Assembly: GCA_964363965.1 (NCBI GenBank)
Contig: CAYIKH010000001.1
Span: 727 to 64,726 of the forward strand
Direction of reading: 5' to 3'
Length of the DNA stretch: 64,000 nucleotides
Source: an uncultured Candidatus Saccharibacteria bacterium
Lineage (GTDB): Bacteria; Patescibacteriota; Minisyncoccia; Sungbacterales; SURF-37
Positions 7,691 through 27,511 of the stretch are shown one piece after another; positions within the stretch are counted from its first letter, which is position 1; every line of letters begins with the position of its first letter. The notes beneath the pieces are model-generated. The model was not told the origin of the DNA and did not search any database. It saw only the letters and a program-made list of their open reading frames with translations. The position numbers and the translations under genes are program-made.

Positions 7691-7720
7691 GCTGACGGCG
7701 CTTACCAGCGCCTCCTCGAC

Positions 7721-10905: not shown

Positions 10906-11283
10906 TTGCCGAGTGGCTTAGGTATTATGGAGTTCCTGGCGTGCTACGCCTCGAGCTTATCGGTGGACGCCGCAAGGTTTGACAAGCTGGTCATAAATGT
11001 GGCTTTCGAGATTTCGCCGCCGCGCCTTGCCTGCAAAGCCCCGTCGCGGCTCTACGGCTTGAATCATTACAAAAAAGCGTTGAAAGTAGAGGGCGTTCGT
11101 CTTGTCCAGAGCCAGGAGGAATTGCTATTCTGGATTCATCGTTACCTTGATGATTCTGCTCTTGATAGGGAAGGGCGGCGGCGGCTTGTCCAGGCGCAGT
11201 GCTGGCAGACCGACGGCCGCGCCGTAGAGCGGATAGCCCGACGCATCCTGCGTGCTGCAGGTGTCATAACTCAAGCGTCATAA
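10906..11283 (+). pseudogene. 3' remnant of a TagF-like transferase paralogue
   Basis: The 125 aa align with the last ~125 residues of the proteins at 24722, 26128 and 36906 (for example YASSLSVDAARFDKLVINV and HYKKALKVEGVRLVQSQEELLFWIHRYLDDSALDREGRRRL match paralogue 2). No N-terminal ~330 aa is present upstream in any frame. Confidence 0.6.
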
Positions 11284-11302: not shown

Positions 11303-13210
11303 ATGAACGCAATGTTTCAGTTGCGACTAAAATTTCCGTGGTGGTTGTGGCTGGCCGGCCTCGCTTTTTTGGTCGGCGCACTACACCTCGCGCCGAGCTT
11401 GTTCATCAAGGCCGCCATTGAGCGCATTGGGGGCTTGTATCTCCTTCCGCAAGTTGTCCATCCCACCCATTCCGACAGCGTCATGTGGTATGTTCCGGCG
11501 AGCCGCGAAGTGGCCGAAGGCCACCTCGTGCCATCGGACATCTATATTCCTACAAACAAGCGGCTTCCCTTTTTCCTCCCTCCGTTGCCGCTCATTTTCT
11601 TCGGCGCGCTCATCGCCCTTGCCGGAGATGCAAATTACGCCTACCTCGCGGCTTTGTTTGTATTTCCCGTAATCACGTTTTTCCTTTTCTATTGGCTGGG
11701 TCGGTTGTTCTTGGCATCGCGCCTTGGCAGCGCGGCGTTTGCCCTGGTCGGGACCTTAACGCCCGTGGCTCTCGCCTACCTGGGGCGAACCACGGAAACG
11801 CTGCAGCTTACCCCGCTCATAACCCTGAAGAGTTTTCTCCCGTTCGTCAGGACGCCCATTCCCGAACTCTATCTTTCGCGGATTACCGAGCCGCTTCTGA
11901 CCATTCCGCTCCTCATCCTGGGTTTCGGGTTTCTCTGGCGCTTTTGGATCCAGCCCTCGCCGCGGCGCGGGGCGCTCGCCGGCGGCGCGATGGCTTTGAC
12001 ACTCTACACGTATCTGCATTACTTTGCGTTCCTGGCGGGGTTCGGCGCAGTGCTCTTTTGTTTTTCGTTTGCGGTATCGCGCGAGCGCGCGAATCTCCGG
12101 GTATGGGCGATTTTCTTCGGCGCGATGGCCATCGGTATTCTGCCGTTTCTTTTCAATTACCTCGAACTCCGCGCTCTCCCGCAGTTCGGCGATTGGGCCG
12201 CTCGTTTGAGCGGGGCGTTTGAGCGCTGGCGCGGCATCCGCCTCTCGGCCTGGCGCGACTACATCCTCTACGCTATTCTCGCGATACCGCTGATACCGCT
12301 TTGGCGGCGCGACCGCAGATTGGCGATGTTCTTCGGGGCGGCTCTGGTTGCGATGGTGATGCTGTGGAATATTCAAATCGTCACCGGTTTTTCCATCATC
12401 CCGACGCACTGGCATAAGGCCTTTGGCGTCCCGCTCTATACCCTGGTGGCCGTTGAGCTCGCCTACGCGGCGGCCTCGATCAGCCAACATCCGCGTTGGC
12501 GCGTTAGGCGCCGGGCCATCGCGGCTGGTTTGACGGTTCTCCTCGTTTTCCTCGTTGCCAAGCGCATCATGAATGCCGCGGCTTACCTCTATCCCGACCG
12601 GCGTACCATGGCCGCCTTTTCGTTCCCAGCCGAGATTTACGATTCATGGCAGTGGCTGAATCAAAATGTTCCTTCCGAATCAGTGGTCCTCTCGACGTCC
12701 TATGTAACGTCGCTCTATCTCGCGGGTTATACGGACACGAATCACTACTTGCCGTTCGGCGACCTGACCCTGACTTCACGCCGCGATCTTGAGGAGCGAT
12801 TCCTTACCGCCCACAAGCTCTTCGGCGTTCCGGAAGAGCGGGTGCGCTTGCTCCTCCGCGGCAAGTACTATCCGCCCACGATATGCGATGTCGGCGGCGA
12901 GTGCGGCAACGAGCATAGCGAGCGAAATCTCCTGCGCGTGCCCCAGATGCTCTACAACGGCGCGTTCGATCCACGGCAGCACGGCCAGGATCAGCTTGAG
13001 CTTTCTTACGAGCCGCTGATTCCGCTTGCGGTGATTGATGATCTTATGGGACGCTACGAAAACGCCCGGCCCGATTGGAAGGATTTCCGGGGCGACTATG
13101 TCTACTATGGCCCGTGGGAGCGCGAGATTCATTCGGTCAACCTTAAGACCAATCCTCGCCTTGAGCTCTTGTATAATCGGGGCGGGGTTGAGATTTACAA
13201 GGTGAGGTAA
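11303..13210 (+). CDS. Large polytopic membrane protein with C-terminal soluble domain; candidate GT-C-type glycosyltransferase
   Basis: 635 aa with more than 10 hydrophobic helices and a C-terminal soluble domain. It sits next to the DPM1-like GT2. Confidence 0.45.
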   Translation: MNAMFQLRLKFPWWLWLAGLAFLVGALHLAPSLFIKAAIERIGGLYLLPQVVHPTHSDSVMWYVPASREVAEGHLVPSDIYIPTNKRLPFFLPPLPLIFFGALIALAGDANYAYLAALFVFPVITFFLFYWLGRLFLASRLGSAAFALVGTLTPVALAYLGRTTETLQLTPLITLKSFLPFVRTPIPELYLSRITEPLLTIPLLILGFGFLWRFWIQPSPRRGALAGGAMALTLYTYLHYFAFLAGFGAVLFCFSFAVSRERANLRVWAIFFGAMAIGILPFLFNYLELRALPQFGDWAARLSGAFERWRGIRLSAWRDYILYAILAIPLIPLWRRDRRLAMFFGAALVAMVMLWNIQIVTGFSIIPTHWHKAFGVPLYTLVAVELAYAAASISQHPRWRVRRRAIAAGLTVLLVFLVAKRIMNAAAYLYPDRRTMAAFSFPAEIYDSWQWLNQNVPSESVVLSTSYVTSLYLAGYTDTNHYLPFGDLTLTSRRDLEERFLTAHKLFGVPEERVRLLLRGKYYPPTICDVGGECGNEHSERNLLRVPQMLYNGAFDPRQHGQDQLELSYEPLIPLAVIDDLMGRYENARPDWKDFRGDYVYYGPWEREIHSVNLKTNPRLELLYNRGGVEIYKVR

Positions 13211-13227
13211 AGCAAATATTAGCCATC

Positions 13228-13986
13228 ATGTGGAACGGCAAAACCGTATCCGTGGTGCTAACCAGCTACCGAGAGAAGGACTCCATCCGCGAGGTTATCG
13301 AAGGTTTTTTTGCCACCGGCGTTGTGGATGAAGTAGTGGTAGTGGATAACAATGCCGAGCCGGGAAGCGTAGAGGAAGTCCGGAAAACGCGCGCCCGCCT
13401 CGTCTTCGAAAAAAAACAAGGACACGGTTATGCTTTGCAGGCCGGTATGAGGGAGTCGAGCGGCGACTACATAATTCTTTGCGAGGCCGACGGCACGTTC
13501 CAGCCGCGCGACGTAAGGATATTTCTGGTCTATGCCGAGGCGTTTCCGGTGGTTTTCGGCACCCGCACCAACAAAAGCATGATTGGCGCCGGTACGGGGA
13601 TGTTTTTCTTGCGGCGTATTGCAGATGTCATCGAGGCGAAGTTCATCGAGTATTTCTTCTGGACGTCGAACCTCACCGACATCGGCTGCACCTACAAGCT
13701 CCTCCGTCGCGAGGTGGTTGAGTTCCTCGAGCCCAAGTGGATCAAGGGCGACTCCCATTTCGTCACCGAGATTACTCTGCAGATTGCCGCAGCGAAAATT
13801 CCCTTCGTCGAAATTCCCGTCACCTTCCGGAAGCGCGTGGGCAAGTCGCTCGTTACTGGGAATTTCGTGAAGATCGCGACGTGGGGCATCAAGCTTTTCC
13901 TCTTTATCTGGCTATTCTGGTTTCGATGGCTACTCTCTCGAAAAATGCGGAGTGTCCGATTTGCGGCAGGAGTTCCTCGCCGCTAA
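13228..13986 (+). CDS. GT2 glycosyltransferase, DPM1-like polyprenyl-phosphate sugar synthase with C-terminal TM
   Basis: VSVVLTSYREKDSI...VVVVDNNAEPGS...ILCEADGT, with a hydrophobic C-terminal helix. Confidence 0.75.
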   Translation: MWNGKTVSVVLTSYREKDSIREVIEGFFATGVVDEVVVVDNNAEPGSVEEVRKTRARLVFEKKQGHGYALQAGMRESSGDYIILCEADGTFQPRDVRIFLVYAEAFPVVFGTRTNKSMIGAGTGMFFLRRIADVIEAKFIEYFFWTSNLTDIGCTYKLLRREVVEFLEPKWIKGDSHFVTEITLQIAAAKIPFVEIPVTFRKRVGKSLVTGNFVKIATWGIKLFLFIWLFWFRWLLSRKMRSVRFAAGVPRR

Positions 13987-14852
13987 GTTCGCGGCGGTTT
14001 CCGAAGTTTGTCGCCTGCGCCCGGTGCGGCGGTTTTTTTCTGGCTGATCCTGCCGCGGTGGGGACAGAATATGATGATGAGTATTTCGAGGCCTCCGGCG
14101 CGCCAACGCTCGCGAGCCGCTTGGCGCGACCGATATTCAATTTCTTTCTCTACCTTCGTTTTCGGAAGGTGCGTTCATTCCTCGGGGAGGGGCGTGCTCG
14201 CGTACTCGATTACGGCGCGGGCTCGGGGGCGCTGGTCGGCTACCTTCGCGCACGCGGAATTGATGCCGTTGGCTATGACCCCTCGCCAGCGGCAGTTATG
14301 GCTGCCGTTTCGAAGGGCATCCCGGTTTCCCGCGACCTTCCGCCGGGGCCGTATGACCTCATTATGTTTTGGCATAGTTTGGAGCATAGCGATAGGCCAA
14401 AACAAGTTCTCGATGAGGCGCGCGGACTGTTCGCTCCCGGCGGGAAACTCCTCATCGCCGTTCCCAATGCGGCGAGTTGGGAAGCCCGCCTCGCCGGTGA
14501 ACGCTGGTTTCACTATGATTATCCGTTTCATCGGGTTCAATTTACTCCCACTGCGATTACCATGCTACTGGAGCGCATCGGCTTCCGTGCCCTCAGCATC
14601 GATTTCTTCAATCCTGAATATACTGTCTCAGGATTTTTACAAACCTTTCTTAACTTCCTTTTTCTAAAAAATGCGCTCTACACGGTGGTCAGCCACCGAC
14701 GGGCGAACGTGTCGCAACAGAAGGCGATGTTTTCGGCAATGGCGGGGTTGCTCTTCCTCGTGGTGTTCTCGCCGCTCATCGGCGCATTCTTTATTCTCGA
14801 ATTCATTTTTCATAAAACCGGGGCCATAATCGTTACCGCAGAGCGACTATGA
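13926..14852 (+). CDS. Class I SAM-dependent methyltransferase with N-terminal Cys4 motif
   Basis: CPICG...CARCG is followed by VLDYGAGSGAL and a C-terminal hydrophobic segment. The start at MATLSK overlaps the GT2 end, and the longer ORF frame begins at 13737. Confidence 0.65.
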   Translation: MATLSKNAECPICGRSSSPLSSRRFPKFVACARCGGFFLADPAAVGTEYDDEYFEASGAPTLASRLARPIFNFFLYLRFRKVRSFLGEGRARVLDYGAGSGALVGYLRARGIDAVGYDPSPAAVMAAVSKGIPVSRDLPPGPYDLIMFWHSLEHSDRPKQVLDEARGLFAPGGKLLIAVPNAASWEARLAGERWFHYDYPFHRVQFTPTAITMLLERIGFRALSIDFFNPEYTVSGFLQTFLNFLFLKNALYTVVSHRRANVSQQKAMFSAMAGLLFLVVFSPLIGAFFILEFIFHKTGAIIVTAERL

Positions 14853-14919
14853 ACATGGAGCTCCGCGCAGCAGACCTGCCCGCCGGCAGGCGGGGCTGCC
14901 CAGTATCTCCAGTTCACCC

Positions 14920-15076
14920 AGCACATAAATTTACATCCGTCTCTGTCAAGACATTGATTTTGTGCGCGGTGAACTTCATTTTACGTTTGAGACCGTTGCA
15001 AATTTATGTGCTGGGTTTATTTGTTTGTCGTCATTCATCCCCGCCCCGACCGCGGTCGGGGCGGGGTATTCTGGGC
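14920..15076. repeat. Long-range inverted repeat plus GC-rich perfect hairpin in a 340-bp intergenic region
   Basis: Arm 14920-14932 (agcacataaattt) is the reverse complement of 15000-15012 (aaatttatgtgct). Separately, 15049-15076 is ccccgccccgacc-gc-ggtcggggcgggg, a 13-bp perfect stem. Confidence 0.6.
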
Positions 15077-15191
15077 AAACAAATAATCACTGGCAAAGAA
15101 GTTGCACGCTGCGTTTTCGTGCGCTAAGCTTGGAAATTGAGTGCAAGCCGTATGACTGGTCTTTCTTAGGATTTACGGTGAGTCACAAACT

Positions 15192-16253
15192 ATGGAAATA
15201 GATGCAGCGGTTTTAGATGCGATGATGGCGGAGCTTGAGCAGGCTCCGCGGCTCTGGCGTCCCTCCGCTTTCTGGGAGCGACTGAGCCGGATTCACGCCG
15301 AGCGCATTGCCAAGGTCGGCCTTTTGAATTTCAAACGCTCGATAAATCTGAAATATTTTAACTGGCGTATCAGCGCAATTCTGGCACATCAACTCTGGCC
15401 GGTGGCGGCGGAGCTTGTCCGCGGGAATTTTTCTCCGTTCCTCCATGCCGAATTTCCAGGCTACGCGCCACAGCCAGAGGTATGGACCAAGGGGTTCAAT
15501 TCTTTTTCGGCCTATATCTACAAAGTGTTCGTGGCCATGTTTGCGGATTACGTGTCGCGGCGTGACGTCCTTCGTCTTCTTGAAGTCGTCGAGGAACCAG
15601 AGCTCGGAAATCCCTTCTCAATAATCTATCGCGGGCGGCGCATCTCACAGGACCTCCTTAATTCCATACTTGAGTTCTACAGCGCAACGGAAGACATAGA
15701 TCCGCGAGGCAAGATTGGTTCCGCCGCCGAGATCGGGGCCGGTTATGGTCGCCTGGCTTACGCGTTTATGAAAGCGCTCCCGAGAGCGACGTATTGCATC
15801 GTAGATATCCCGCCAGCGCTCTTTGTTTCCCAGACATACCTTTCGCAGATATTTCCCGGAGAGCGTATATTCCGCTTCCGCCCCTTCGGCTCTTTCGGTG
15901 AGGTCCGGCAGGAGTTCGAATCCTCCCGCATCCGTTTCCTTATGGCTCATCAGATTGAGCTTTTACCGCCGAAATATTTTGATCTCATCTTGAATGTGAG
16001 CTCGCTCCATGAGATGACGCGCGACCAGATTGCAAACTACATCCGCTCTGTCGAGCGGATCGGACGGCGCCATTTTTATACCAAACAGTGGAAGAGGTCT
16101 CATGCGCGGGATAACAACTTTATTACGGAGCATGAATATCCGATTCCCGCAGGGTGGCAGATGGTCCACCATCGTACTCACCCCGTACAGCGCCCGTTCT
16201 TCGAGGCCCTCTACCGTGCTCGCGCGGTACGGGAGACCGACAAGTCCGTTTAA
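15192..16253 (+). CDS. Putative SAM-dependent (sugar O-)methyltransferase, paralogue A
   Basis: 353 aa with the glycine-rich EIGAGYGRLAY motif. It is ~70% identical to the protein at 20651..21700. Confidence 0.55.
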   Translation: MEIDAAVLDAMMAELEQAPRLWRPSAFWERLSRIHAERIAKVGLLNFKRSINLKYFNWRISAILAHQLWPVAAELVRGNFSPFLHAEFPGYAPQPEVWTKGFNSFSAYIYKVFVAMFADYVSRRDVLRLLEVVEEPELGNPFSIIYRGRRISQDLLNSILEFYSATEDIDPRGKIGSAAEIGAGYGRLAYAFMKALPRATYCIVDIPPALFVSQTYLSQIFPGERIFRFRPFGSFGEVRQEFESSRIRFLMAHQIELLPPKYFDLILNVSSLHEMTRDQIANYIRSVERIGRRHFYTKQWKRSHARDNNFITEHEYPIPAGWQMVHHRTHPVQRPFFEALYRARAVRETDKSV

Positions 16254-16316
16254 TCTCATGATTTGGGAGTTGCTGTTTCGGCGGACCGGTGCTATGGTAG
16301 TCACTGCCGAATTTCT

Positions 16317-17543
16317 ATGAGGACCAACCTTGCTTGCCGCATCTGCAGGAGCGATAAGTTGCGCGAATTTTTAAATCTCGGCGAACATCCCCTGGCCAAC
16401 GCCCTAGTCTCCAGAGAAAAGCTGGCAGAACCGGAGATGAGATACCCCCTGCGGGTTCTCTTTTGCCAAGAATGCGGCCTTTCGCAGCTCGGTGAGGTGA
16501 TAAGTCCGAAAATACTCTTCCGGGATTACGTCTATCTCACTTCCGGCATGCCTCGAGTTTCGGAGCACTTCCGAAATTACGCCAACGACATTGTTGATCG
16601 TTTTTCCAGGCCGGGAGGCCTGGTGGTAGAAATCGGATCAAACGATGGCATTCTCCTTGCGGCGGTCAAGGAGCGCGGAACACGCGTCTTGGGCATTGAC
16701 CCGGCTTTGAACATTGCCAAGGTGGCCAACGACCGGGGGGTTGAGACCATTCCCGATTTCTTTAGTCAGCATCTCGCTACTGACATCGCACGAAAGTATG
16801 GCCAAGCTGATGTTGTGATAGGAAATAATGTAGTTGCCCACATTGACGACCACCACGATCTCCTTCGGGGAGTGATAACCTTTTTGAAGCCGGACGGCGC
16901 TTTCATTTTTGAAGCTCCATATCTCCTGGATATGTTTGAGCGCTTGGCCTTTGATAGCATCTACCACGAGCACCTCTCCTACCTCTCCATTCGTCCGCTC
17001 CGGCGACTTATGCAGGATCACGAGATGGAGATATTTGATGTCAGGATGTTCCCGGTGCAGGGGGAATCAATTCGTGTCTTTGCCGGTCTTGCCGGGAAGC
17101 ATGCCATCATGCCGAGCGTTGCGAAGTTTCTTGAATTAGAAGAGAAGAGCGGCCTTGATGATTTTGAAAGCTACCAGGAGCTTTCCTCACGCATCCAGCA
17201 ACTAAAATCAGAGGTCGTTTCAACCCTCCACGATTTTAAGCGTCAAGGCAAACGCATCGCCGGCTATGGCGCCCCGGCGCGCGGCAATACCATTTTGAAT
17301 TACTACGGTATAGGCCCGGACATGCTAGAGTATGCGACCGAGGAGTTGCCGACAAAGATTGGTCGCTTCACTCCGGGCACGCATATCCCCGTCATTCACG
17401 TCGAGGAATCGAGGAAGAACCCGCCGGATTATTATCTGCTGTTGGCGTGGAATTATCTTGATGCCGTGCTCGAAAAGGAACGGGCCTTTCGCGAGCGTGG
17501 CGGTAAATTCATTCTGCCGGTGGGGGAAACGCGTATCATGTAG
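16317..17543 (+). CDS. NDP-hexose C-methyltransferase (second paralogue)
   Basis: CRICRS...CQECG Zn motif, VVEIGSNDGILL, and the same architecture as 6407..7690. The ORF frame opens at 16263. Confidence 0.7.
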   Translation: MRTNLACRICRSDKLREFLNLGEHPLANALVSREKLAEPEMRYPLRVLFCQECGLSQLGEVISPKILFRDYVYLTSGMPRVSEHFRNYANDIVDRFSRPGGLVVEIGSNDGILLAAVKERGTRVLGIDPALNIAKVANDRGVETIPDFFSQHLATDIARKYGQADVVIGNNVVAHIDDHHDLLRGVITFLKPDGAFIFEAPYLLDMFERLAFDSIYHEHLSYLSIRPLRRLMQDHEMEIFDVRMFPVQGESIRVFAGLAGKHAIMPSVAKFLELEEKSGLDDFESYQELSSRIQQLKSEVVSTLHDFKRQGKRIAGYGAPARGNTILNYYGIGPDMLEYATEELPTKIGRFTPGTHIPVIHVEESRKNPPDYYLLLAWNYLDAVLEKERAFRERGGKFILPVGETRIM

Positions 17544-17557
17544 CATAATGCGCAAGT

Positions 17558-18622
17558 ATGGCGGAACCTCGGCGTAATTTCCAAAACATTCTTGTCTGCG
17601 GCGGGTCCGGCTTCATGGGCTCGCATTTTGTCAATCATCTCTATCATAAGTATCCGCAGTATAAAATTTTCAATCTTGATCTTCTAACCTACGCCGGCAA
17701 TAACGCCAATGTCCGGGATGTTGAGCTGCATAAGATCGGCCTTCCGCCGGATGACCAGCGTTATCATTTCATCCATGGTGATATCTGCGATCGAGATCTT
17801 CTTAATTCGCTTTTCAGCGCCAATCGCTTTGCCACAGTAATCAACTTTGCCGCCGAATCTCATGTTGATCGTTCCATCATTGACTCCCAGGATTTCATCC
17901 GTACCAACATCCAAGGAGTGCATACCCTATTGGAGATGACCAGGAAATACAGCATTCCTAAGTTCATCCAAATTTCAACTGATGAAATCTACGGCGATGT
18001 GCCGGACGGCTGCTCGCACGAGGAAAGCCCCATCCGGCCGTCCAATCCCTACTCGGCGTCAAAGGCCAGCGCCGACGTGCTGGTCCAGGCATTTATTCGT
18101 ACCCACCGCGCACCGGCCCTGATCGTGCGCGGGTCGAATAACTTCGGTCCGTATCAGTACCCCGAAAAATTGATCCCGCTCGCGATCACGAGTTACCTCG
18201 AGGGCGGGAAGATTCCGGTTCACGGCAACGGCCGGCACGTTCGCAGCTGGGTTTACGTAAAGGATTTCACGAATGCCGTTGACCTCGTGATGCACCACTC
18301 ACCTCTCTATTCAATCTGGAACATCGGCGGCATGCAAAAGACAAACCTGGAGGTCATTCACAAAATCGGGGAGCTCCTTGGCAAAGAGCCGTCCGGGCAC
18401 ATCGAGCACATCTCCGACCGACCGGGGGCCGACCTCCGCTATGCGCTTGACAGCGGGAAAATTCGCCGGGAGCTCGGCTGGCAGCCAGCCTACGATTTCG
18501 ACACCGCTCTTGCCGAGACCGTCGCGTGGTATCGCGACAATCCCCAGTGGTGGAAGGCGATTCGGGCATCGGATACCTTCCGGCGCCACTACGAGAAGCA
18601 GTCCAAAGCGCAGTATTACTAG
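17558..18622 (+). CDS. rfbB: dTDP-glucose 4,6-dehydratase family
   Basis: ILVCGGSGFMGSHFV and YSASKASAD (Y-x3-K) at a length typical of RfbB. NDP specificity cannot be proven from sequence. Confidence 0.8.
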   Translation: MAEPRRNFQNILVCGGSGFMGSHFVNHLYHKYPQYKIFNLDLLTYAGNNANVRDVELHKIGLPPDDQRYHFIHGDICDRDLLNSLFSANRFATVINFAAESHVDRSIIDSQDFIRTNIQGVHTLLEMTRKYSIPKFIQISTDEIYGDVPDGCSHEESPIRPSNPYSASKASADVLVQAFIRTHRAPALIVRGSNNFGPYQYPEKLIPLAITSYLEGGKIPVHGNGRHVRSWVYVKDFTNAVDLVMHHSPLYSIWNIGGMQKTNLEVIHKIGELLGKEPSGHIEHISDRPGADLRYALDSGKIRRELGWQPAYDFDTALAETVAWYRDNPQWWKAIRASDTFRRHYEKQSKAQYY

Positions 18623-18629
18623 GCTTAAT

Positions 18630-19484
18630 ATGGCAAAGATTGCGGTGATCGGCGCAAGCGGCATGCTCGGCTATGACCTGATGAATGCTGGCCGGCCTGA
18701 CGACACGCTTGTGGGTTTGGCCCATGCCGATATTGAGATTACTGATCCGGCGAGCGTTGCTGTGGCATTAGAACGATGCCGGCCGGAGGTGGTCATCAAT
18801 GCTGTGGCCATCATCAAAACCGAGCTTTGCGAGACCGAGCCGGATCGCGCTTTTTTGGTCAACGCAGTCGGCGCTTACAATGTGGCCAAAGCCGCGGCTG
18901 GACTAGGGGCCGCAGTCGTTTTCATAAGCACGGATTACGTCTTCGACGGCTCCAAACCCTCTTTTACCGAAGAAGATGCGCCTTACCCCTTGAACGTTTA
19001 CGGCGCCTCCAAGCTTGCCGGCGAGATTTTGACAAAAATCGCAAACCCAAAGCATTTCATTATCCGCACCGGCTGGCTCTTCGGCAAAAAAGTGAGCCAC
19101 AAGGGATATAACTTTGTCACCCTCATGCTCGAGCGCGCCAAATCCGAGGCCGAAGTTCGGGTGGTCAATGATCAGACCGGCTCGCCCACCTATACGCTTG
19201 ATTTAGCACTGAAGATTTACGAGCTCATTAGACATCAAGCTCCCTTTGGTATCTATCACATCACCAATCAGGGCGGCGCCACGTGGTACGAATTCGCAAA
19301 AAAAATCTTTGAACTTTCGGGGGTAAGCCCACAACTCATCCCCATCACCACTGCTGAAAGCGGAACAAAAATCGCGCGGCCAGCGTTTTCCGTTCTCGAG
19401 AATCAAGGACTGCCAGAGTTCGGCATCTCACCGCTTCGTCCGTGGCAGGAAGCGCTCCGGGCGTACCTTGACGAAATAATGTAG
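18630..19484 (+). CDS. rfbD: dTDP-4-dehydrorhamnose reductase family
   Basis: MAKIAVIGASGMLG...YGASKLAGE. The start was chosen at MAKIAV, and the ORF frame overlaps the rfbB end. Confidence 0.75.
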   Translation: MAKIAVIGASGMLGYDLMNAGRPDDTLVGLAHADIEITDPASVAVALERCRPEVVINAVAIIKTELCETEPDRAFLVNAVGAYNVAKAAAGLGAAVVFISTDYVFDGSKPSFTEEDAPYPLNVYGASKLAGEILTKIANPKHFIIRTGWLFGKKVSHKGYNFVTLMLERAKSEAEVRVVNDQTGSPTYTLDLALKIYELIRHQAPFGIYHITNQGGATWYEFAKKIFELSGVSPQLIPITTAESGTKIARPAFSVLENQGLPEFGISPLRPWQEALRAYLDEIM

Positions 19485-19565
19485 TTGCTGTACAATTTTA
19501 GCTGCGCTATTTGGGCGTAGCGTTTGTTCTTTTCAAAAATATTCTAAGAGAGGAGGTGAGCGGCG

Positions 19566-20120
19566 GTGCGCTTCCTGCGGATGCTCTGGGAGTGCATCAC
19601 ACTATGGCGGCCAGAACCAGCCACTGAGGAGGAGCTGAGAAAATGCGACGCGGTGTTCGCGTTCGCGGACTCGCGGATGCGGGATGGTTCACCGGGACCA
19701 GGCAATGAGTTCATAGCCGCAGGATGTCGGGAGCTTCGCGAGCGGTACGGGTTACCACTCCTCGTCCAGGATGAGGTGGCGCTTGCGGCGGAGGATCTTG
19801 AATGCCGCTATGTCGCGCGCGGACCTCAGCATGGTAAATCGGGGCGTCGGTGGAATACGGCGACTATCACCGATGAATTTGCCGCCATCTGTCGGCAGGA
19901 GCGATGGTGCCGAATCGTCATCGTCTCCACTCCTGACCATCTCCTGCGCTGCTGCTGGGTTGCGCGTAAGCGCGGCTTCGAAGCGGTATGTGCCGAGATG
20001 CCCGAGGGGCATTACTTCCATCCCGATTTGGCCCTCTGGGCCTGCCGTGGCGGAAAGTACCGCTTCCGGGCGCGCGATTTCCTCGTGCGGCTCTACTTTC
20101 TCTTTCGTGGCGATATATGA
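19566..20120 (+). CDS. Hypothetical protein, DUF218 (YdcF/ElyC)-like
   Basis: IVIVSTPDHLLRC resembles the DUF218 core motif. It has a GTG start with a strong SD (gagaggaggtga) at 19548-19559. Confidence 0.4.
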   Translation: MRFLRMLWECITLWRPEPATEEELRKCDAVFAFADSRMRDGSPGPGNEFIAAGCRELRERYGLPLLVQDEVALAAEDLECRYVARGPQHGKSGRRWNTATITDEFAAICRQERWCRIVIVSTPDHLLRCCWVARKRGFEAVCAEMPEGHYFHPDLALWACRGGKYRFRARDFLVRLYFLFRGDI

Positions 20121-20255
20121 CGGGTGGCCGTGGCCTCGCTACCTTTGATGAGCTCTTCGGGTACGGTGCCGGAAGAGCATCCGGTAGTCGTGAGCACGAG
20201 GCGGCTTCGCACGCGCGAAGCCGCCTTTCTTTTTGTCGATTTTTGAGTTAGATTT

Positions 20256-20648
20256 TTGGATATGCAGTTTCACGAATACCGATTCCACGAGGACGACCGC
20301 CGCAAAGGGCGTTACGACATTGTTTCCGGCCTTGTCGGAGAGATGAATTTTTCCGTACACCCTGCCGGAGTGGTTCCTGAAGAGTGGCACATGCATAAAA
20401 TTCATACCGACTATTTCACGGTGGCCAAAGGCCGGGCACTGTTTCGGCTTCTATATGAGGATGGACGTGAGGAGAAAATCATTTTGAGCGAAAGAGATGC
20501 CAAGACCCTGATCGTGCCTCCTGGCGTTTGGCATAACTACACGGCGCTCGAGCCGACGATTATGATTTTCTACATTGACCGTAAATTCGATGCCGCCGAT
20601 GAATTTCGGAAGCCATGTGATGCCGACGGCTGGAGCGTTGATAGATAG
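20256..20648 (+). CDS. Cupin-fold NDP-4-keto-6-deoxyhexose 3,4-ketoisomerase/epimerase (FdtA/WxcM-like)
   Basis: 130 aa with the WHMHK...TDYFTVAKG...VWHNY His-containing cupin motifs. Confidence 0.55.
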   Translation: MDMQFHEYRFHEDDRRKGRYDIVSGLVGEMNFSVHPAGVVPEEWHMHKIHTDYFTVAKGRALFRLLYEDGREEKIILSERDAKTLIVPPGVWHNYTALEPTIMIFYIDRKFDAADEFRKPCDADGWSVDR

Positions 20649-20650
20649 AT

Positions 20651-21700
20651 ATGAAAGTTGATCCAGTAATTTTAAGCTCGATGTTCGAGGAGCTTAAACG
20701 AGCTCCTCAAATTTATCATCCTTCCGAATACTGGGAGCGGCTGAATAAACGACACGCCGAGCGCATCATCGCCTCCGGTCTTGGTAGTTTCAAGCGATCG
20801 GTGAATTTGAAGTATTTTAGCTGGCGGGTCAGACCTATTCTGCGCCAGCAGCTTTGGCCGGTTTTGGCCGCATTGGCGCGCCTCAATTTATCGCCATTTT
20901 TCAGGAGTGAGTTTAAAAACTATGAAGCGCGACTGGAAGAAGGAGCAAAAGGCTTTGGTCGCTGGTCAGCATTTGTCTATCGGGTTTTTGTTTCGGCCTT
21001 TGCTGATTACCTATCGCGACAAGATCGTATGAAACTGCTTAAGACGATTGATGAGCCGATGTTAGGTAACCCCTTTGCTATTAGTTATCACGGTCGGCTT
21101 ATTTCGCAGGACCTCATAAATTCCATTCTCGAATTTTATAGCGCCACCCAAGCAAGTGACCCTCGGCGCGATATTGGGTCGGTGGCGGAGATTGGAGCCG
21201 GGTACGGGCGCCTGGCTTATGTTTTTTTGGAAGCCCTACCCAAATCAACGTATTGTATTATTGATATTCCACCGGCACTATATATTTCGCAGGAGTATTT
21301 AAGTCAGTTGTTCCCCGGTGAGCGAATTTTTCGTTTCCGGCCTTTTCGTTCTTTCGCCGATGTCAGGGAGGAGTTCGAAACTTCGCGCATACGCTTTTTG
21401 ATGGCCCATCAGATCGAGCTTCTTCCGCCAAAAGGTTTTGATTTGGTGCTGAATGTAAGTTCATTCCAGGAGATGTCGCGCGATCAGATTGCCAATTACA
21501 CCAAGCAATTTGAGCGCATCGGCCGCCGCTATTTTTACACCAAGCAGTGGAAGCGATCACACGTGCGCGACAATGATTTTATCACCGAACATGAATATCC
21601 TGTGCCCGCCGGATGGCAGGCCATCTACCATCGACGCCATCCAATCCAGTCCAAGTTCTTCGAGGTCCTTTACCGCGCCAATCCCGACGGGAAACTCTAG
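20651..21700 (+). CDS. Putative SAM-dependent (sugar O-)methyltransferase, paralogue B
   Basis: 349 aa, co-linear with 15192..16253 at ~70% identity (EIGAGYGRLAY, FYTKQWKRSH). Confidence 0.55.
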   Translation: MKVDPVILSSMFEELKRAPQIYHPSEYWERLNKRHAERIIASGLGSFKRSVNLKYFSWRVRPILRQQLWPVLAALARLNLSPFFRSEFKNYEARLEEGAKGFGRWSAFVYRVFVSAFADYLSRQDRMKLLKTIDEPMLGNPFAISYHGRLISQDLINSILEFYSATQASDPRRDIGSVAEIGAGYGRLAYVFLEALPKSTYCIIDIPPALYISQEYLSQLFPGERIFRFRPFRSFADVREEFETSRIRFLMAHQIELLPPKGFDLVLNVSSFQEMSRDQIANYTKQFERIGRRYFYTKQWKRSHVRDNDFITEHEYPVPAGWQAIYHRRHPIQSKFFEVLYRANPDGKL

Positions 21701-21757: not shown

Positions 21758-22747
21758 TTGATTACTATGACAAAACTCATTGCCGAGGTCTGTCAGAACC
21801 ATAAGGGGAACCGGGGGCTCTTGAAGGAGCTAATTTTTGCCGCAGCCGAAGCCGGCGCTGACATCGTGAAGGGCCAGGTTATTTTTTCCGATGACCTTAC
21901 CTACCGTGAACGCTTTGAAGGGGGAGTCGTGGAACATAATGGAGTTCGCAAGACCATCCAGCGTCCGTACGGCCCGGAGCGCGAACGGCTCTCCAAACTC
22001 GATCTTAACGAGGACGATTACCGCTTTTTTATTGAGGAGTGCTATCGCGCCGGAGTCCGGCCGATGCTTACCGTATTTTCGCGCAAGCGCATTCCCTTTG
22101 CGGCGTCCTTGCCGTGGCAGGGCGAGAAACTGTTTAAGGTGGCCAGCTACGATTGCGCGAGTTTCCCCATGCTCCGCGAACTGGCCGGATATTTCGATCG
22201 TCTCATCGTGTCCACCGGCGGAACGTTCGATGATGAAATCAAACAGGCCGCCGAAATTTTACGATCATCGGCCAAACCTTATGCGCTTCTACACTGCGTG
22301 ACCAGTTATCCCAATACTTTGGCCATGGCTAACCTGGCCCGTATCCGATGGCTGAAGCAGTTTGCGCCTGAGACGGGATGGTCGGATCATACCCTGGTCG
22401 AGCGTGACGGCATCAAGGCAGCCAAGGTCGCGATCATGCTCGGGGCTGATTACGTTGAACGACACTTCACCGTCCTCCCGTCAGAGGAGACAAAGGACGG
22501 ACCGGTTTCGATCACTCCACAGCTCCTGGCCGACCTGAAAGCATTCAGCCGCCTTAGTGGGGAGGAACAGCGCGAAGCCGTAAAGCAAGACATCCCGGAG
22601 TGGCCGATCATGATCGGAGCTTCCGAACGCGAGCTCATCCATACCGAGATGCTTAACCGCGATTACTACCGCGGTCGTTTCGCCAGCCGTGTCGGTGAGG
22701 AATGGGTGTATAACTGGGAGGATGGGTTGGAGAGAGAGAAGGTTTGA
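21758..22747 (+). CDS. NeuB-family (PEP-condensing ulosonic acid synthase-like) enzyme lacking SAF domain
   Basis: IAEVCQNHKGNRGLLKELIFAAAEAGADIVKGQ parallels the NeuB N-terminus. LHCVTSYP and WSDHT parallel the NeuB HC..YP / FSDHS motifs. Confidence 0.5.
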   Translation: MITMTKLIAEVCQNHKGNRGLLKELIFAAAEAGADIVKGQVIFSDDLTYRERFEGGVVEHNGVRKTIQRPYGPERERLSKLDLNEDDYRFFIEECYRAGVRPMLTVFSRKRIPFAASLPWQGEKLFKVASYDCASFPMLRELAGYFDRLIVSTGGTFDDEIKQAAEILRSSAKPYALLHCVTSYPNTLAMANLARIRWLKQFAPETGWSDHTLVERDGIKAAKVAIMLGADYVERHFTVLPSEETKDGPVSITPQLLADLKAFSRLSGEEQREAVKQDIPEWPIMIGASERELIHTEMLNRDYYRGRFASRVGEEWVYNWEDGLEREKV

Positions 22748-23904
22748 TGCGCTACATCGTCACAAACTTTGCCTATGGTACCGGGCCGTACCTGCGGACT
22801 ACGGAATTGGCCATCGCGCTGAACCAACGATTGTTCGAGCTTGGTCGCGAGCGGCTCGGTATCATCGTTCCCTGGGTCTACGGCGAGAAGCAGCGCAGTA
22901 TCATGCGTGAGGAGTTTGGGGGCTACAATACCGTCCATCCCGGGGAGATTCTCCTTGATTCGCACCTCGGTGTGCTCTTAAGAAGCGTTTTCTACGGGAA
23001 TAACACCTACGAGCAGGCGCTTTCCCTTTGGGTGGAGCGGGGCGATGCGGCCAGCCGCGAAGCCCAGTCACATCTCTTGGGGATACTCGAACTTGAAGAT
23101 TTATCCGGCCGGCGCGTTACGGTTGCAGGTGGAGAAATCGTACTAGAACTCAATCGCGCCCCGCGTCTCACTTACGCCGTAGCGCCCAGTTACTCAGCGA
23201 CTTTCGCTCATATCTCGGCCATTCTCCGCGCGGTACTCGAGGTGCCGGAAGCCGAGATCCGGGTGGATCGCGAGCTGGTGCGCCGAGCCATACCGCTTGC
23301 CGAGCGGATCGAGCGGCTCCAGCGGCTGCACTTCGTTGCCGAACCAGGGACTTTCTCCTATTTAGGCACACGTATGCGCTACCCGAACGAAGAATCTTCT
23401 CCTCCCATTGCCCGGCCCCTCGCCACGAACAATAAACCCCTGGCCCCGGGGATCTACGTCACCGTCACTGGCATCCCGGGGCTTGAGCGGCTCTACCAGG
23501 AGGCCCGCGGGCTCGGCCTCACCATTTACACCAATGACCCGGAGGCGGTGCCGGGGGCGAAGCGGCTTCTCCCGCATGTCATACCCAATCCGGCGATCAA
23601 ATTTCAGTTTGCGCGGAGCGGTTGGGGTTCGATCTGGAACTCGCAGCTCTCCGGTACCCCCTTCGTCACCCCAGCCTACGATCCTACCGACGATCCGGAG
23701 ATTTACTTCAATAATCGCTGTCTCGAGGAATTGGGACTGGGCATTAGCTATCGCCGTGAATCTTTTAAGAAACTTCTCGAGCTCGCCGAGGCGTTGCGCC
23801 CGCGAATCAAAGCTATCAACCGCGCGATCCTGGCGCGATTCGGCACTTACGATGGTAACCGTTACATCGCCGAGCGCATCGTTGACAGGCATTTCACCGA
23901 GTGA
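22744..23904 (+). CDS. GT-B fold protein, MurG/PseG-like (glycosyltransferase or UDP-sugar hydrolase)
   Basis: The C-terminal FARSGWGSIWNSQLSGTPFV resembles the Glyco_tran_28_C motif. Confidence 0.4.
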   Translation: MMRYIVTNFAYGTGPYLRTTELAIALNQRLFELGRERLGIIVPWVYGEKQRSIMREEFGGYNTVHPGEILLDSHLGVLLRSVFYGNNTYEQALSLWVERGDAASREAQSHLLGILELEDLSGRRVTVAGGEIVLELNRAPRLTYAVAPSYSATFAHISAILRAVLEVPEAEIRVDRELVRRAIPLAERIERLQRLHFVAEPGTFSYLGTRMRYPNEESSPPIARPLATNNKPLAPGIYVTVTGIPGLERLYQEARGLGLTIYTNDPEAVPGAKRLLPHVIPNPAIKFQFARSGWGSIWNSQLSGTPFVTPAYDPTDDPEIYFNNRCLEELGLGISYRRESFKKLLELAEALRPRIKAINRAILARFGTYDGNRYIAERIVDRHFTE

Positions 23905-23993
23905 GAGGTTGGGGTTGAAATTCCTTCGCGGTAGTCGAGGCCGAGACCTCGATGCCGGTGGAGAAGTATTCTTAAAAGAGGCACATCTGCTAT

Positions 23994-24725
23994 ATGTTTA
24001 ACAACACCCACATTCTCGCGATCATCCCGGCCCGTGGCGGTTCGAAGGGTATTCTCCGGAAGAACCTCCGGTTAGTGGCTGGATTGCCGCTAGTTGTCCA
24101 TAGCATTCTTGCCGCCAAAGCTTCACGCTTAATTGAGCGCACTATTGTCTCTACTGACGACGAGGAGATCGCCGAGGTGGCGCGGAGCTACGGGGCCGAA
24201 GTTCCTTTTCTCCGGCCGGCGGATCTGGCTCTCGACACCACTCCGGATTTCCCGGTTTTCGAGCACTGTCTGAATTGGCTTGAGGAGAGTGAGGAGTACC
24301 GGCCCGATATCGTGGTTCATCTCCGGCCCACCGGCCCCCTTCGCACCGGGTTAGAAATCGACGAGGCGGTCGAGCTCCTGGAGCGTCATCCCGAGGCCGA
24401 CTCGGTCCGCTCGGTGCACGAGCCGGATAAATCTCCCTACAAAATGTGGCGGCTCGAAGGTTCGTACATGGTGCCTTTTTTACGTGATCCCGACTACCCC
24501 GAGCACTATAACGCCCCCCGCCAACTCCTGCCCAAGGTCTACGCTACTAATGCCAACATCGGGGTGGTCCGCTACCGGACACTCCGGGAGAAAGGTTCGG
24601 TCATAGGAGAGCGCGTTTTGCCCTATCCTGTCTCCGGGCCGCACGTGGACATTGATACTGAACTCGATCTTGAACTCGCCGAGCTTCTCTTTCGGAAGCG
24701 CGCGCGGGAGGGCCGCGGGTATTGA
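23994..24725 (+). CDS. CMP-ulosonic acid / acylneuraminate cytidylyltransferase family (CTP_transf_3)
   Basis: AIIPARGGSKGILRKN...VSTDDEEIA is the canonical NeuA/KdsB-family N-terminus. Confidence 0.7.
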   Translation: MFNNTHILAIIPARGGSKGILRKNLRLVAGLPLVVHSILAAKASRLIERTIVSTDDEEIAEVARSYGAEVPFLRPADLALDTTPDFPVFEHCLNWLEESEEYRPDIVVHLRPTGPLRTGLEIDEAVELLERHPEADSVRSVHEPDKSPYKMWRLEGSYMVPFLRDPDYPEHYNAPRQLLPKVYATNANIGVVRYRTLREKGSVIGERVLPYPVSGPHVDIDTELDLELAELLFRKRAREGRGY

Positions 24726-26131
24726 TGCAGCGGCGTTTTATGTCGACGGTCTTCCTCGCCCTAGCCAACTCCAGCCACTACTCGGGTGTCCTCCGGACGC
24801 GCTTTATTGCTGAACTCGCCCGGCACTTTCGCGTCCTCGTTCTCACTCCGCAGCTGGATGATGCGATCGTCAAACGCGATCGCTATTTTCGGAATGGAGG
24901 CGTTTCTTACCATCGTTTCCCTATTACCTATCCGCGTTTCTGGAATGTTTTGGACAGGTATCTGCGCGTGCCGCTTGTCTCCTCCTTCGACCACCTCACC
25001 TACATGCGCTATTTCTATCAGCGGTCCCACGCGCCGATCCGGAAACTCCTCATGGCCTCCCGACGGCTCTTCCCGGCATTCCTCTTCACCACCGATCGGT
25101 TGACGCTCTGGGAGGTGCGTTGGGCTCCGCAGGGTAAGGTACTAGCCGAGCTCTTTCGCACTCACACCCCGATCCTCGTCCTCACCGCCACCCCTGGATT
25201 CACGCCCTTCGAAGCCGAAATCATCGTCGCGGCTAAGCGCTTAGGGGTTCAGACCGCGGCTATCAGCATCAACTACGACAACTTGACTTCCAACGGCAAG
25301 CTCATCCGTAAAACCGACTATCTCGCCGTCTGGAACAATCTCATGCGGCGCGAAGCTAAAGTTTTGCATCGCTATTCGGATGAGCGTTTAGGCCTAGTCG
25401 GGTGTCTGCGCTTTGACCATTATTTTTATGATGAGGAGAATCCGCGTTTCCCCTCGCGCGAAGATTTTCTGAAAGCCAAGGGCCTTGATCCCGGCCGGAA
25501 AACACTGGTCTTTGCCGGCCCGACCCCAACCAATTACCCTCCGCGGCGTGAGTTTATTGCCGAGCTCTTGCGTCTTAAACGCGATGGGCACCTTGACGGC
25601 GATCCAAATATCCTGGTTCGCATTCATCCTAACGATAGTCTGGCAACGTATCGCGAGTTCCTTGGGATGCCGGGCATGCATTTTGAAGGCGCAAGTCGCA
25701 ACGTGCGTCTGGATGGCGGCAAGGGGGTGAGCATGGACGAGGAAGACCTTCTGAACCTTACCGCCACCCTTAAATACGCTGATGTTGTTTTGAATTTCGC
25801 CTCGACCGTGGCCATGGAGGCAGCTATCTTTGACCGGCCGGTCATCAATGTCGCCTTTCCCGACTACCGCCGAATCGTGTATCAATATGAATACAATAAA
25901 CACATCGTTGATACTGGCGGCGTGCGTTTAGCCCGAAGCCCGGAGGAGCTTAGTGAACTAGTAAACATGTATTTCCGCAACCCGGCTCTTGATCGCGAAG
26001 CGCGGGCCAAACTCCTTGAATTTTTTATCCCGTTTCGCGACGGCCGGAGCTGGGCGCGAACTATGGACTTCATTGTGAAAATTACCAAGCCCGGTAGTGA
26101 GAGCTTCTCTCTACTACCGGGCAAGCCGTGA
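24722..26131 (+). CDS. TagF-like CDP-polyol phosphotransferase family protein (GT-B), paralogue 1
   Basis: The C-terminus VVLNFASTVAMEAAIFDRPVINVAFPDYRR...YEYNKHIVDTGGVRLARSPEEL parallels the TagF motif region (..ITDYSS...KP.I....D.EEY...YDYE...GP...T.EEL). Confidence 0.55.
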   Translation: MMQRRFMSTVFLALANSSHYSGVLRTRFIAELARHFRVLVLTPQLDDAIVKRDRYFRNGGVSYHRFPITYPRFWNVLDRYLRVPLVSSFDHLTYMRYFYQRSHAPIRKLLMASRRLFPAFLFTTDRLTLWEVRWAPQGKVLAELFRTHTPILVLTATPGFTPFEAEIIVAAKRLGVQTAAISINYDNLTSNGKLIRKTDYLAVWNNLMRREAKVLHRYSDERLGLVGCLRFDHYFYDEENPRFPSREDFLKAKGLDPGRKTLVFAGPTPTNYPPRREFIAELLRLKRDGHLDGDPNILVRIHPNDSLATYREFLGMPGMHFEGASRNVRLDGGKGVSMDEEDLLNLTATLKYADVVLNFASTVAMEAAIFDRPVINVAFPDYRRIVYQYEYNKHIVDTGGVRLARSPEELSELVNMYFRNPALDREARAKLLEFFIPFRDGRSWARTMDFIVKITKPGSESFSLLPGKP

Positions 26132-27501: not shown

Positions 27502-27511
27502 GAGTGATATT

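Follow-up and report, generated by a model that had tools for sequence, protein, structure and literature searches.

The window analyzed here, a stretch of 64,000 nucleotides from an uncultured bacterium of the Patescibacteria (candidate phyla radiation, CPR), contains a group of sugar-modifying genes at positions 15192-21700. Together with the methyltransferase gene MT23 upstream of it, this group probably represents a conserved sugar-tailoring cassette within a cell-surface glycan locus of about 49 kb. Its product is likely a deoxythymidine diphosphate (dTDP)-linked C-methyl-6-deoxy-L-hexose carrying one or more O-methyl groups. Gene order in other metagenomic lineages points to a core set of C-methyltransferase, dehydratase, reductase and cupin, usually accompanied by an O-methyltransferase, that recurs there as a unit. 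The general idea of the initial annotation, that a C-methylated deoxysugar is made by this region, was supported. The feature that it had stressed does not exist: neither is the duplication recent, nor is the cassette that it brackets a duplicated one.

Gene content and recurrence of the cassette

Seven open reading frames (ORFs) on the plus strand make up the region, and the positions and gene identities assigned to them in the initial annotation hold. The first and the last encode the methyltransferases A (15192-16253; 353 amino acids, aa) and B (20651-21700; 349 aa), which reached 129.7 and 149.9 bits with the NCBIfam model TIGR04371 (methyltran_NanM, putative sugar O-methyltransferase; members are called NanM-like below). 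Both exceed its curated cut-off of 44. The second ORF (16317-17543; 408 aa) encodes C-MT2, a nucleoside diphosphate (NDP)-hexose C-methyltransferase (C-MT) of the TylC3/MtmC/TcaB9/KijD1 type. It combines the N-terminal zinc-binding domain PF08421 (79.1 bits), the S-adenosylmethionine (SAM)-methyltransferase domain PF13489 (71.4 bits) and the C-terminal domain PF08484 (175.8 bits). Over its full length it could be aligned to the D-mycarose 3-C-methyltransferase MtmC (4rv9; E 7e-102), and the alignments show CxxC...CxxC and the segment IYHEHLSY. Its best solved relatives MtmC, KijD1 and TcaB9 (E 1e-80 to 1e-102) are all 3-C-methyltransferases.

The third ORF (17558-18622; 354 aa) encodes RfbB/RmlB, a dTDP-glucose 4,6-dehydratase, which scored 386.7 bits with the equivalog model TIGR01181 (cut-off 365.1). 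The models of other dehydratases gave far lower scores of 89.9 bits (CDP-glucose dehydratase) and 48.8 bits (GMD), and the protein also carries the label dTDP-glucose 4,6-dehydratase in its NCBI record. It is followed by an RmlD-type dTDP-4-keto-6-deoxy-L-hexose 4-reductase (18630-19484; 284 aa), identified by the equivalog model TIGR01214 (280.6 bits; cut-off 224.05) and by PF04321 (271.7 bits). Just after this gene, a promoter-like site (19468-19496) and a weaker hairpin (19501-19521) were observed. The next ORF (19566-20120; 184 aa, real start probably the ATG at 19581) encodes a small, weakly DUF218-like protein. A small three-histidine cupin of 128 aa (20262-20648), which belongs to the structural group of the NDP-4-keto-sugar epimerases and ketoisomerases, precedes B, and the start codon of B lies 2 bp past the stop codon of the cupin gene.

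MT23 (13926-14852, plus strand) encodes a class I SAM methyltransferase of 308 aa (Methyltransf_23; PF13489, 85 bits), its start being taken from the gene call on contig L091 (99.9% identical). The protein carries a CxxC..CxxC motif at the N-terminus and ends in a hydrophobic tail. Homologues of MT23 were found directly before the C-MT gene in locus L001 and between the genes for RmlD and the cupin in locus L023. From these positions, MT23 appears to be a conserved neighbor of the cassette and a possible further O-methyltransferase. MT23 and A are separated by a non-coding spacer of 339 bp (14853-15191), read from the sequence, which is probably a transcription-unit boundary. It holds G+C-rich inverted repeats, for example CCCCGCCCCGACCGCGGTCGGGGCGGGG at about 15039-15066, and blastn likewise revealed a perfect, G+C-rich inverted repeat at 15017-15066. 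A further G+C-rich palindromic stretch is located at about 14874-14900, just past the stop codon of MT23.

Cassettes of the same kind were found in several other loci. In L001 the order is MT23, C-MT, RfbB, RmlD, a 180-aa protein, the cupin, a short methyltransferase and one NanM-like gene; MT23 and C-MT overlap there, with no gene at the position of A and no spacer. L003 shows the order RfbB, RmlD, a 213-aa protein, cupin and one NanM-like gene. L023 (Ca. Giovannonibacteria) carries a gene for a family 2 glycosyltransferase (GT2), followed by C-MT, RfbB, RmlD, MT23 and the cupin, with a NanM-like gene nearby. Three more loci were found through the cupin. L008 (254-6058) contains C-MT, RfbB, RmlD and the cupin, and the NanM-like gene is replaced by a PF04989 methyltransferase of the rhamnosyl-O-methyltransferase/CmcI type. 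L009 and L010 contain C-MT, RmlD, a 238-aa protein and the cupin. The related cassettes each have a single A/B-like gene or a different O-methyltransferase. A core of the L008 type also occurs on a Joint Genome Institute (JGI) contig of 53 kb, together with a heptosyltransferase (Glyco_transf_9), an MBOAT protein and a set of FkbH and acyl carrier protein (ACP) genes.

The association of NanM-like genes with C-MTs extends beyond these cassettes. It was surveyed in 80 loci (L011-L090) with a TIGR04371 gene, each from a different GTDB species; the genomes scanned do not include the window's own lineage, the best identity being 53%. A TylC3-type C-MT was located within 10 kb of the TIGR04371 gene in 42 of them, and in 29 of the 39 loci that offer at least 8 kb on both sides. 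The surveyed loci span CPR, Chloroflexota, Actinomycetota, Proteobacteria, Planctomycetota and Myxococcota, as well as one metagenome-assembled genome of the Thaumarchaeota (L056). Unlike the locus studied here, none of the 80 has a second TIGR04371 copy within 10 kb.

The presence of both copies in one locus is real, since the independently assembled groundwater contig L091 shows the same order. This contig is collinear with the window and 99.90% identical over 18,397 bp, with A and B both present, and an assembly chimera as the source of the arrangement was thereby ruled out.

Methyltransferases A and B and the second C-methyl module

Homologues of A and B in metagenomes number more than 1,290, and the few with a source name read 'putative sugar O-methyltransferase'. 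The AlphaFold2 (AF2) model of B (pLDDT 89.5, pTM 0.91) consists of an N-terminal helical domain and a Rossmann core. All of the 50 top Foldseek matches of this model have a methyltransferase fold, nearly all of them being SAM-dependent methyltransferases. In 42 family sequences, the glycines G182, G184 and G186 of motif I (GxGxG) and the acidic residue D205 after strand 2 were invariant, and motifs I and II of the family align with those of 3dtn and PhzM. Sequence searches of the solved structures with A and with the TIGR04371 family profile gave nothing significant, and look-ups of the exact sequences of A and of the protein P0004 had no result. The SAM-binding residues, on which the initial annotation had let its claim depend, are kept in both copies, and the model of B shows a class I methyltransferase fold. 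Based on the family name and the gene neighborhood, A and B are putative O-methyltransferases for the cassette sugar.

The two proteins are identical at 229 of 343 positions (67%), with 82% positives, no gaps and 496 bits, which is far above chance, so that the collinearity at about 70% identity estimated earlier by eye was borne out by the pairwise comparison. The identity is distributed unevenly and amounts to 52-53% in residues 1-125 and 78.5% in residues 171-300. This pattern would fit two functional enzymes that diverged in acceptor recognition, with conserved Rossmann cores and diverged N-terminal domains that are presumably acceptor-binding.

At the DNA level, A and B are 66.3% identical over 343 codons, with 75%, 81% and 42.6% at the first, second and third positions. 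The synonymous divergence (dS) is saturated, being undefined by NG86 and 2.3 by LWL85, and the nonsynonymous divergence (dN) is about 0.24. The longest identical run measures 14 nt. Similarity is confined to the ORFs (15191-16219 versus 20650-21678), and the flanks are dissimilar. Repeats so diverged cannot drive homologous recombination, and the bracketing of the module by A and B is therefore without mechanistic meaning; a role of the pair as a mobilizing repeat was ruled out by the 14-nt limit of identical sequence.

Among the homologues, only three other protein clusters (P0001 to P0003) fall into the same clade as A and B. P0001 and P0002 share 80% and 73% of their residues with B, P0003 shares 72% with A, and A and B are about 66-67% identical to each other. 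In a bootstrapped neighbor-joining (NJ) tree, the clade of A, B and P0001-P0003 was supported by 100%, B with P0001 by 99%, B with P0001 and P0002 by 88.5% and A with P0003 by 76.5%. A and B are not sisters, because B groups with P0001 and P0002 and A with P0003. The tree thus places the A/B split at least as early as the divergence of the cassette-bearing lineages, whose other cassette genes show 69-77% DNA identity to the window. By these sequence comparisons, A and B are old paralogues, both under purifying selection. B appears to hold the ancestral position in the cassette, which is that of the single NanM-like copy in L001 and L003, and A would be an extra gene that this lineage gained, whether through an ancient duplication or by uptake from a related lineage.

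Acquisition is a possibility of some weight, though not the one favored here. Copy A would then be a xenologue that came by recombination from a related lineage of Patescibacteria with an A-type gene in its cassette (such as L001) and was inserted, together with a promoter region of its own, ahead of C-MT2. The grouping of A with the L001 protein P0003 (72% identity, bootstrap 76.5%) suggests this, although P0003 occupies the B position of its own cassette. The hairpin-bearing spacer of 339 bp before A, which L001 does not have, and the mosaic nature of these loci (the block 21758-27501, for instance, is missing from L003) are consistent with it as well. However, the support for A with P0003 is moderate in a clade of five sequences, and the G+C content gives no foreign signal. 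In addition, the DNA of A is 71.8% identical to L001, in a range similar to the 74-77% of the other cassette genes, and an old duplication followed by differential loss fits equally.

That one NanM-like copy is redundant or decaying, which would leave the pair functionally meaningless, is very unlikely. A single copy does suffice in all 80 surveyed loci as well as in L001 and L003, but both ORFs are intact here and dN lies far below the saturated dS. Of the 102 family columns conserved to at least 90%, A retains 97 and B 98 (95-96%), the changes being conservative, and the arrangement is stable in the independent assembly.

The initial annotation had also proposed the duplication and divergence of a complete cassette, given that a second C-methyl module (4579-8647) is located upstream. 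This module begins with a glucose-1-phosphate cytidylyltransferase-like gene (4579), which at 292.8 bits narrowly misses the cut-off of 300.25, and continues with a short-chain dehydrogenase/reductase (SDR) dehydratase gene (5412), whose best match is CDP-glucose 4,6-dehydratase, under the cut-off. The TylC3-type C-methyltransferase C-MT1 (6407-7690) and a Gfo/Idh/MocA oxidoreductase (7721) follow. Paralogy of C-MT2 and C-MT1 was confirmed, with 36% identity over 405 aa (E 5e-92). Streptomyces MtmC (43%) and the L001 orthologue (62%) are closer to C-MT2 than C-MT1 is. Only two gene families are common to the modules, the dehydratases share 26% identity, and the gene order differs. By these comparisons, the modules are independent of each other, with separate ancestries, and lie within the same large glycan locus. 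The upstream module possibly makes a CDP-linked 3-C-methyl-6-deoxyhexose of the vinelose type.

A recent tandem or segmental duplication that gave rise to A and B, bracketing and perhaps mobilizing the module, with the whole cassette copied from the module at 4579-8647, can accordingly be given almost no weight: the collinear, gapless alignment of A and B at 67% identity and the occurrence of a TylC3-type C-MT with an SDR 4,6-dehydratase in both modules would agree with it, but the third positions, the saturated dS, the short identical runs, the dissimilar flanks, the closer relationship of B to P0001 and P0002 than to A, the separation of A from B in the tree and, for the modules, the low identities, the nearness of C-MT2 to MtmC, the different gene order and the differing remaining genes all contradict it.

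The cupin, the nucleotide carrier and the predicted sugar

The cupin scored below the cut-offs of all family models, with 22.2 bits for FdtA (PF05523; cut-off 23), 17.5 bits for RmlC (PF00908; 27) and 24.3 bits for WbuC (42). Its orthologue in L001 passes the FdtA threshold (27.2 versus 23) and that in L003 reaches the RmlC threshold (27.2 versus 27). In a profile search of the PDB, RmlC (2b9u; E 3.8e-4) and QdtA (4zu7; E 4e-4) were matched to the same degree. The AF2 model (pLDDT 82) gave top Foldseek matches mainly to RmlC, CapF, StrM, FdtA, QdtA, ChmJ and NovW, with EvaD also among the structural matches and an E value of about 3e-6 for the RmlC fold. The protein, described earlier as an FdtA-like cupin, thus belongs by its predicted fold to the FdtA/RmlC/CapF group, and its FdtA family score is slightly sub-threshold.

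In total, 14 protein clusters of this cupin family were found. Invariant residues are H43, K46, D50, H91 and Y104, with H45 almost invariant, and the motifs HxH-x4-D-x6-G and PG-x2-H are canonical. H43 and H45 align with the HSH of QdtA. In the profile alignment with RmlC, the catalytic histidine is aligned and D50 is found where RmlC has a lysine. In every locus found, the family is located beside a C-MT and an RmlD-like reductase. The earlier statement that no rfbC is adjacent is misleading in this respect, given the structural group of the cupin and its constant company. RmlD, of which the cassette reductase is an equivalog, requires an L-configured 4-keto substrate, and the cassette encodes no further epimerase, which makes an epimerase the most economical reading of the cupin. 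As judged from its predicted structure, it probably stands in for RmlC.

The small protein encoded between RmlD and the cupin had been called a DUF218 protein. The ORF is present, and its match to PF02698 reached only 14.3 bits (E 0.039; cut-off 27.6). Proteins in the same slot scored 12.7 bits in L001 (E 0.12) and 19.8 bits in L003 (E 7.7e-4). The L001 orthologue is 47% identical to the 184-aa protein, and the proteins of L003 (2684-3325) and L009 (9173-9889) have no BLAST similarity to it. The 184-aa, L003 and L009 proteins have the motif VT/S-x-P-x-H-x-x-R in common. The slot is thus filled in different lineages by small proteins that are dissimilar by BLAST and all give weak DUF218 matches. 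Comparison of the 184-aa protein with solved structures revealed no PDB relative. From the shared motif and the weak scores, a remote DUF218 relationship is plausible. YdcF of E. coli, a DUF218 protein, reportedly binds SAM.

From the gene content we infer the nucleotide carrier, the order of the steps, the regiochemistry and the O-methylation targets as follows. RfbB would dehydrate an NDP-glucose to the 4-keto-6-deoxy sugar, the substrate being most likely dTDP-glucose supplied by a thymidylyltransferase encoded outside the window. C-MT2 would then methylate the carbon beside the keto group of the NDP-4-keto sugar, most likely C-3 by analogy with its solved relatives. The three-histidine cupin would epimerize the sugar at C-5, C-3 or both, and the RmlD-type enzyme would reduce the 4-keto group to yield a C-methyl-6-deoxy-L-hexose of the 3-C-methyl-rhamnose, nogalose or noviose type. 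A, B and possibly MT23 would O-methylate different hydroxyls, either on the nucleotide sugar or after transfer. The resulting methylated 3-C-methyl-6-deoxy-L-hexose would go into the surface glycan that the surrounding genes produce.

Several points weigh against this pathway or against the unity of the cassette. A strong terminator-like hairpin (20198-20227, plus strand; 13-bp stem with nine G-C pairs followed by a T-run, found by a consensus pattern scan) divides the cassette between the DUF218-like gene and the cupin gene. No glucose-1-phosphate thymidylyltransferase gene (rfbA/RmlA) was found in the 64-kb window or in any related cassette locus by Pfam and NCBIfam searches of the main, mostly plus-strand, gene-like ORFs and by tblastn with both nucleotidyltransferases of the window. 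The only genes of the nucleotidyltransferase fold in the 64 kb are the glucose-1-phosphate cytidylyltransferase-like gene at 4579 and an HddC/ManC-like gene at 31226, which extends the earlier remark that no rfbA is adjacent to the whole window. C-MT2 may methylate C-5 in the manner of NovU, and we know of no solved structure of a NovU-type 5-C enzyme for comparison. Literature and structure searches yielded no solved or experimentally characterized member of TIGR04371. The cupin carries the HxHK motif of FdtA and QdtA and not the lysine of RmlC, and its sequence does not separate an epimerase from a 3,4-ketoisomerase. Finally, in several of the more distant loci a NanM-like gene and a C-MT have GT2 and GT-C-like membrane proteins as neighbors, and neither RfbB nor RmlD is encoded within 10 kb.

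The last two points each lead to a different assignment. If the cupin were a true 3,4-ketoisomerase of the FdtA/QdtA type, the route would pass through a 3-keto sugar to another branched sugar, with methylation at C-2 or C-4 or with reduction at C-3. The alignment of its HxHK with YHSHK of QdtA, the score of the L001 orthologue above the Pfam FdtA threshold and its length of 128 aa, which is closer to FdtA and QdtA (about 135-144 aa) than to RmlC (about 180-200 aa), are in line with this. Nevertheless, this function is unlikely. The cassette contains no aminotransferase, the usual partner of FdtA and QdtA, and the RmlD equivalog needs its L-configured 4-keto substrate. Matches of the RmlC type are equal or better, and the L003 orthologue reaches the RmlC threshold. 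Furthermore, TylC3-type enzymes are not known to act on 3-keto sugars.

The distant loci without RfbB and RmlD would agree with a separation of the two activities, in which RfbB, the cupin and RmlD make ordinary dTDP-L-rhamnose and C-MT2 and the NanM-like enzymes use other substrates such as a lipid-linked or polymer-bound sugar. RfbB and RmlD do score as equivalogs of the rhamnose pathway. This explanation is even less probable than a ketoisomerase, as the characterized TylC3-type enzymes MtmC, KijD1 and TcaB9 use NDP-4-keto sugars, the direct neighbor of the C-MT in all cassette loci is RfbB and/or RmlD, with neither rmlA nor a canonical rmlC ever next to it, and the cupin family was found only in such cassettes.

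The preferred pathway to a C-methyl-6-deoxy-L-hexose resembles the dTDP-sugar pathways of actinomycete antibiotics, such as those for mycarose (MtmC/TylC3), nogalose and noviose (NovT/NovW/NovU/NovS). These likewise comprise a 4,6-dehydratase, a TylC3-type C-MT, a cupin epimerase and an RmlD-like 4-ketoreductase, followed by O-methyltransferases. The similarity extends to the sequence of C-MT2 (43% to MtmC) and to NovW, ChmJ, EvaD and StrM among the structural matches of the cupin. In contrast to the actinomycete secondary-metabolite clusters, the genes are located here in a CPR cell-surface glycan locus without an adjacent RmlA gene, the cupin is a 128-aa three-histidine protein instead of an RmlC-type enzyme of 200 aa, and the O-methyltransferases belong to TIGR04371 and not to TylF/NovP or other known families of sugar O-methyltransferases.

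A surface polysaccharide with a C-methyl-branched deoxysugar is also found in Coxiella burnetii, where the proposed route to virenose (6-deoxy-3-C-methylgulose) of the lipopolysaccharide (LPS) uses a nucleotidyltransferase, a 4,6-dehydratase, a TylC3-like 3-C-methyltransferase and a 4-ketoreductase/epimerase; the favored route is GDP-linked, with GMD and GMER (PMC3539893). The dehydratase and the reductase described here are, in comparison, of the dTDP type (RmlB and RmlD equivalogs), and O-methyltransferases are also present.

With FdtA/QdtA, the C-terminal part of CapF and WbuC, and RmlC, the cupin shares the jelly-roll fold used for NDP-4-keto-6-deoxy sugars as well as the HxH...H cluster and HxHK. 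It differs from them in falling below every family threshold and forming a narrow family of its own. It also differs from the FdtA- and CapF-type families in its partners, which are always a C-MT and an RmlD-like gene and never the aminotransferase FdtB or FnlA/CapE. For WbuC, the literature search returned resistance-plasmid annotations only.

Taken together, three further proposals can be put forward tentatively, their joint validity being doubtful. The 128-aa cupin may represent an undescribed, narrow family of NDP-4-keto-sugar epimerases or isomerases for C-methyl-branched sugars. The TIGR04371 proteins may be dedicated O-methylating partners of TylC3-type C-MTs across bacterial phyla and at least one archaeon. 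MT23, A, C-MT2 and B may build a heavily methylated, nogalose-like branched deoxysugar on the CPR cell surface. A literature search found no such heavily methylated branched deoxysugar described for Patescibacteria.

The surrounding glycan locus and biological meaning

The cassette is embedded in about 49 kb (2929-51980) of nearly uninterrupted glycan-biosynthesis genes, located mainly on the plus strand. In a genome of probably about 1 Mb, this represents a large fraction. Besides the CDP-sugar C-methyl module, the locus encodes GT2 enzymes, two NeuB-like synthases with cytidylyltransferases (CMP-transferases) and a heptose pathway of the GmhA/HddA/GmhB/HddC type. It further contains Glyphos_transf-like proteins, a Wzy_C-TPR fusion, a UDP-glucose dehydrogenase-like gene, a Bac_transf initiating transferase, a family 4 glycosyltransferase (GT4) and large multi-pass membrane proteins.

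Two of these membrane proteins, encoded at 8788-10749 and 11303-13210 (653 and 635 aa), have no Pfam match, and a paralogy test between them revealed no detectable similarity. By analogy with more distant loci, in which PTPS_related/PMT (GT-C-like) proteins occupy these positions, they are candidate GT-C-type glycosyltransferases. Between them, an ORF of 125 aa (10906-11283) only faintly resembles the C-terminal end of Glyphos_transf (E 0.005), and at its site the independent assembly calls a gene of 118 aa.

Downstream of B, the block 21758-27501 comprises a NeuB-like gene (under the equivalog cut-offs), a 386-aa protein without a family match, a PseF-like cytidylyltransferase and two Glyphos_transf-like proteins. 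In L003, this block is missing, and a NUDIX gene joins the NanM-like gene to a homologue of the window gene at 27437-28327. These loci are mosaics of swappable blocks. At the other end of the window, the G+C content falls to 0.38 within positions 1-2000, compared to about 0.54 elsewhere. A gene for a phosphonate-binding ABC-transporter protein (737-1642) and a gene for a CDP-alcohol phosphatidyltransferase (1860-2669) are located there on the minus strand.

The current understanding of deoxysugar biosynthesis is left unchanged by these results. Cassettes of this kind are already known, and such sugars are not known to have been described in Patescibacteria. Of modest interest are the TIGR04371 paralogues, an old pair that has been retained and that no other examined locus shows, and the small, apparently dedicated cupin family. 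The link between TIGR04371 and sugar C-MTs across phyla offers a starting point for this uncharacterized family, and the accompanying cupin family becomes testable in the same way as a second uncharacterized one. Patescibacteria are uncultured episymbionts whose surface chemistry is essentially unknown. For these organisms, a specific and unusual sugar on the cell surface is predicted from the conserved C- and O-methylated deoxysugar cassette, whose enzymes could be expressed and tested.

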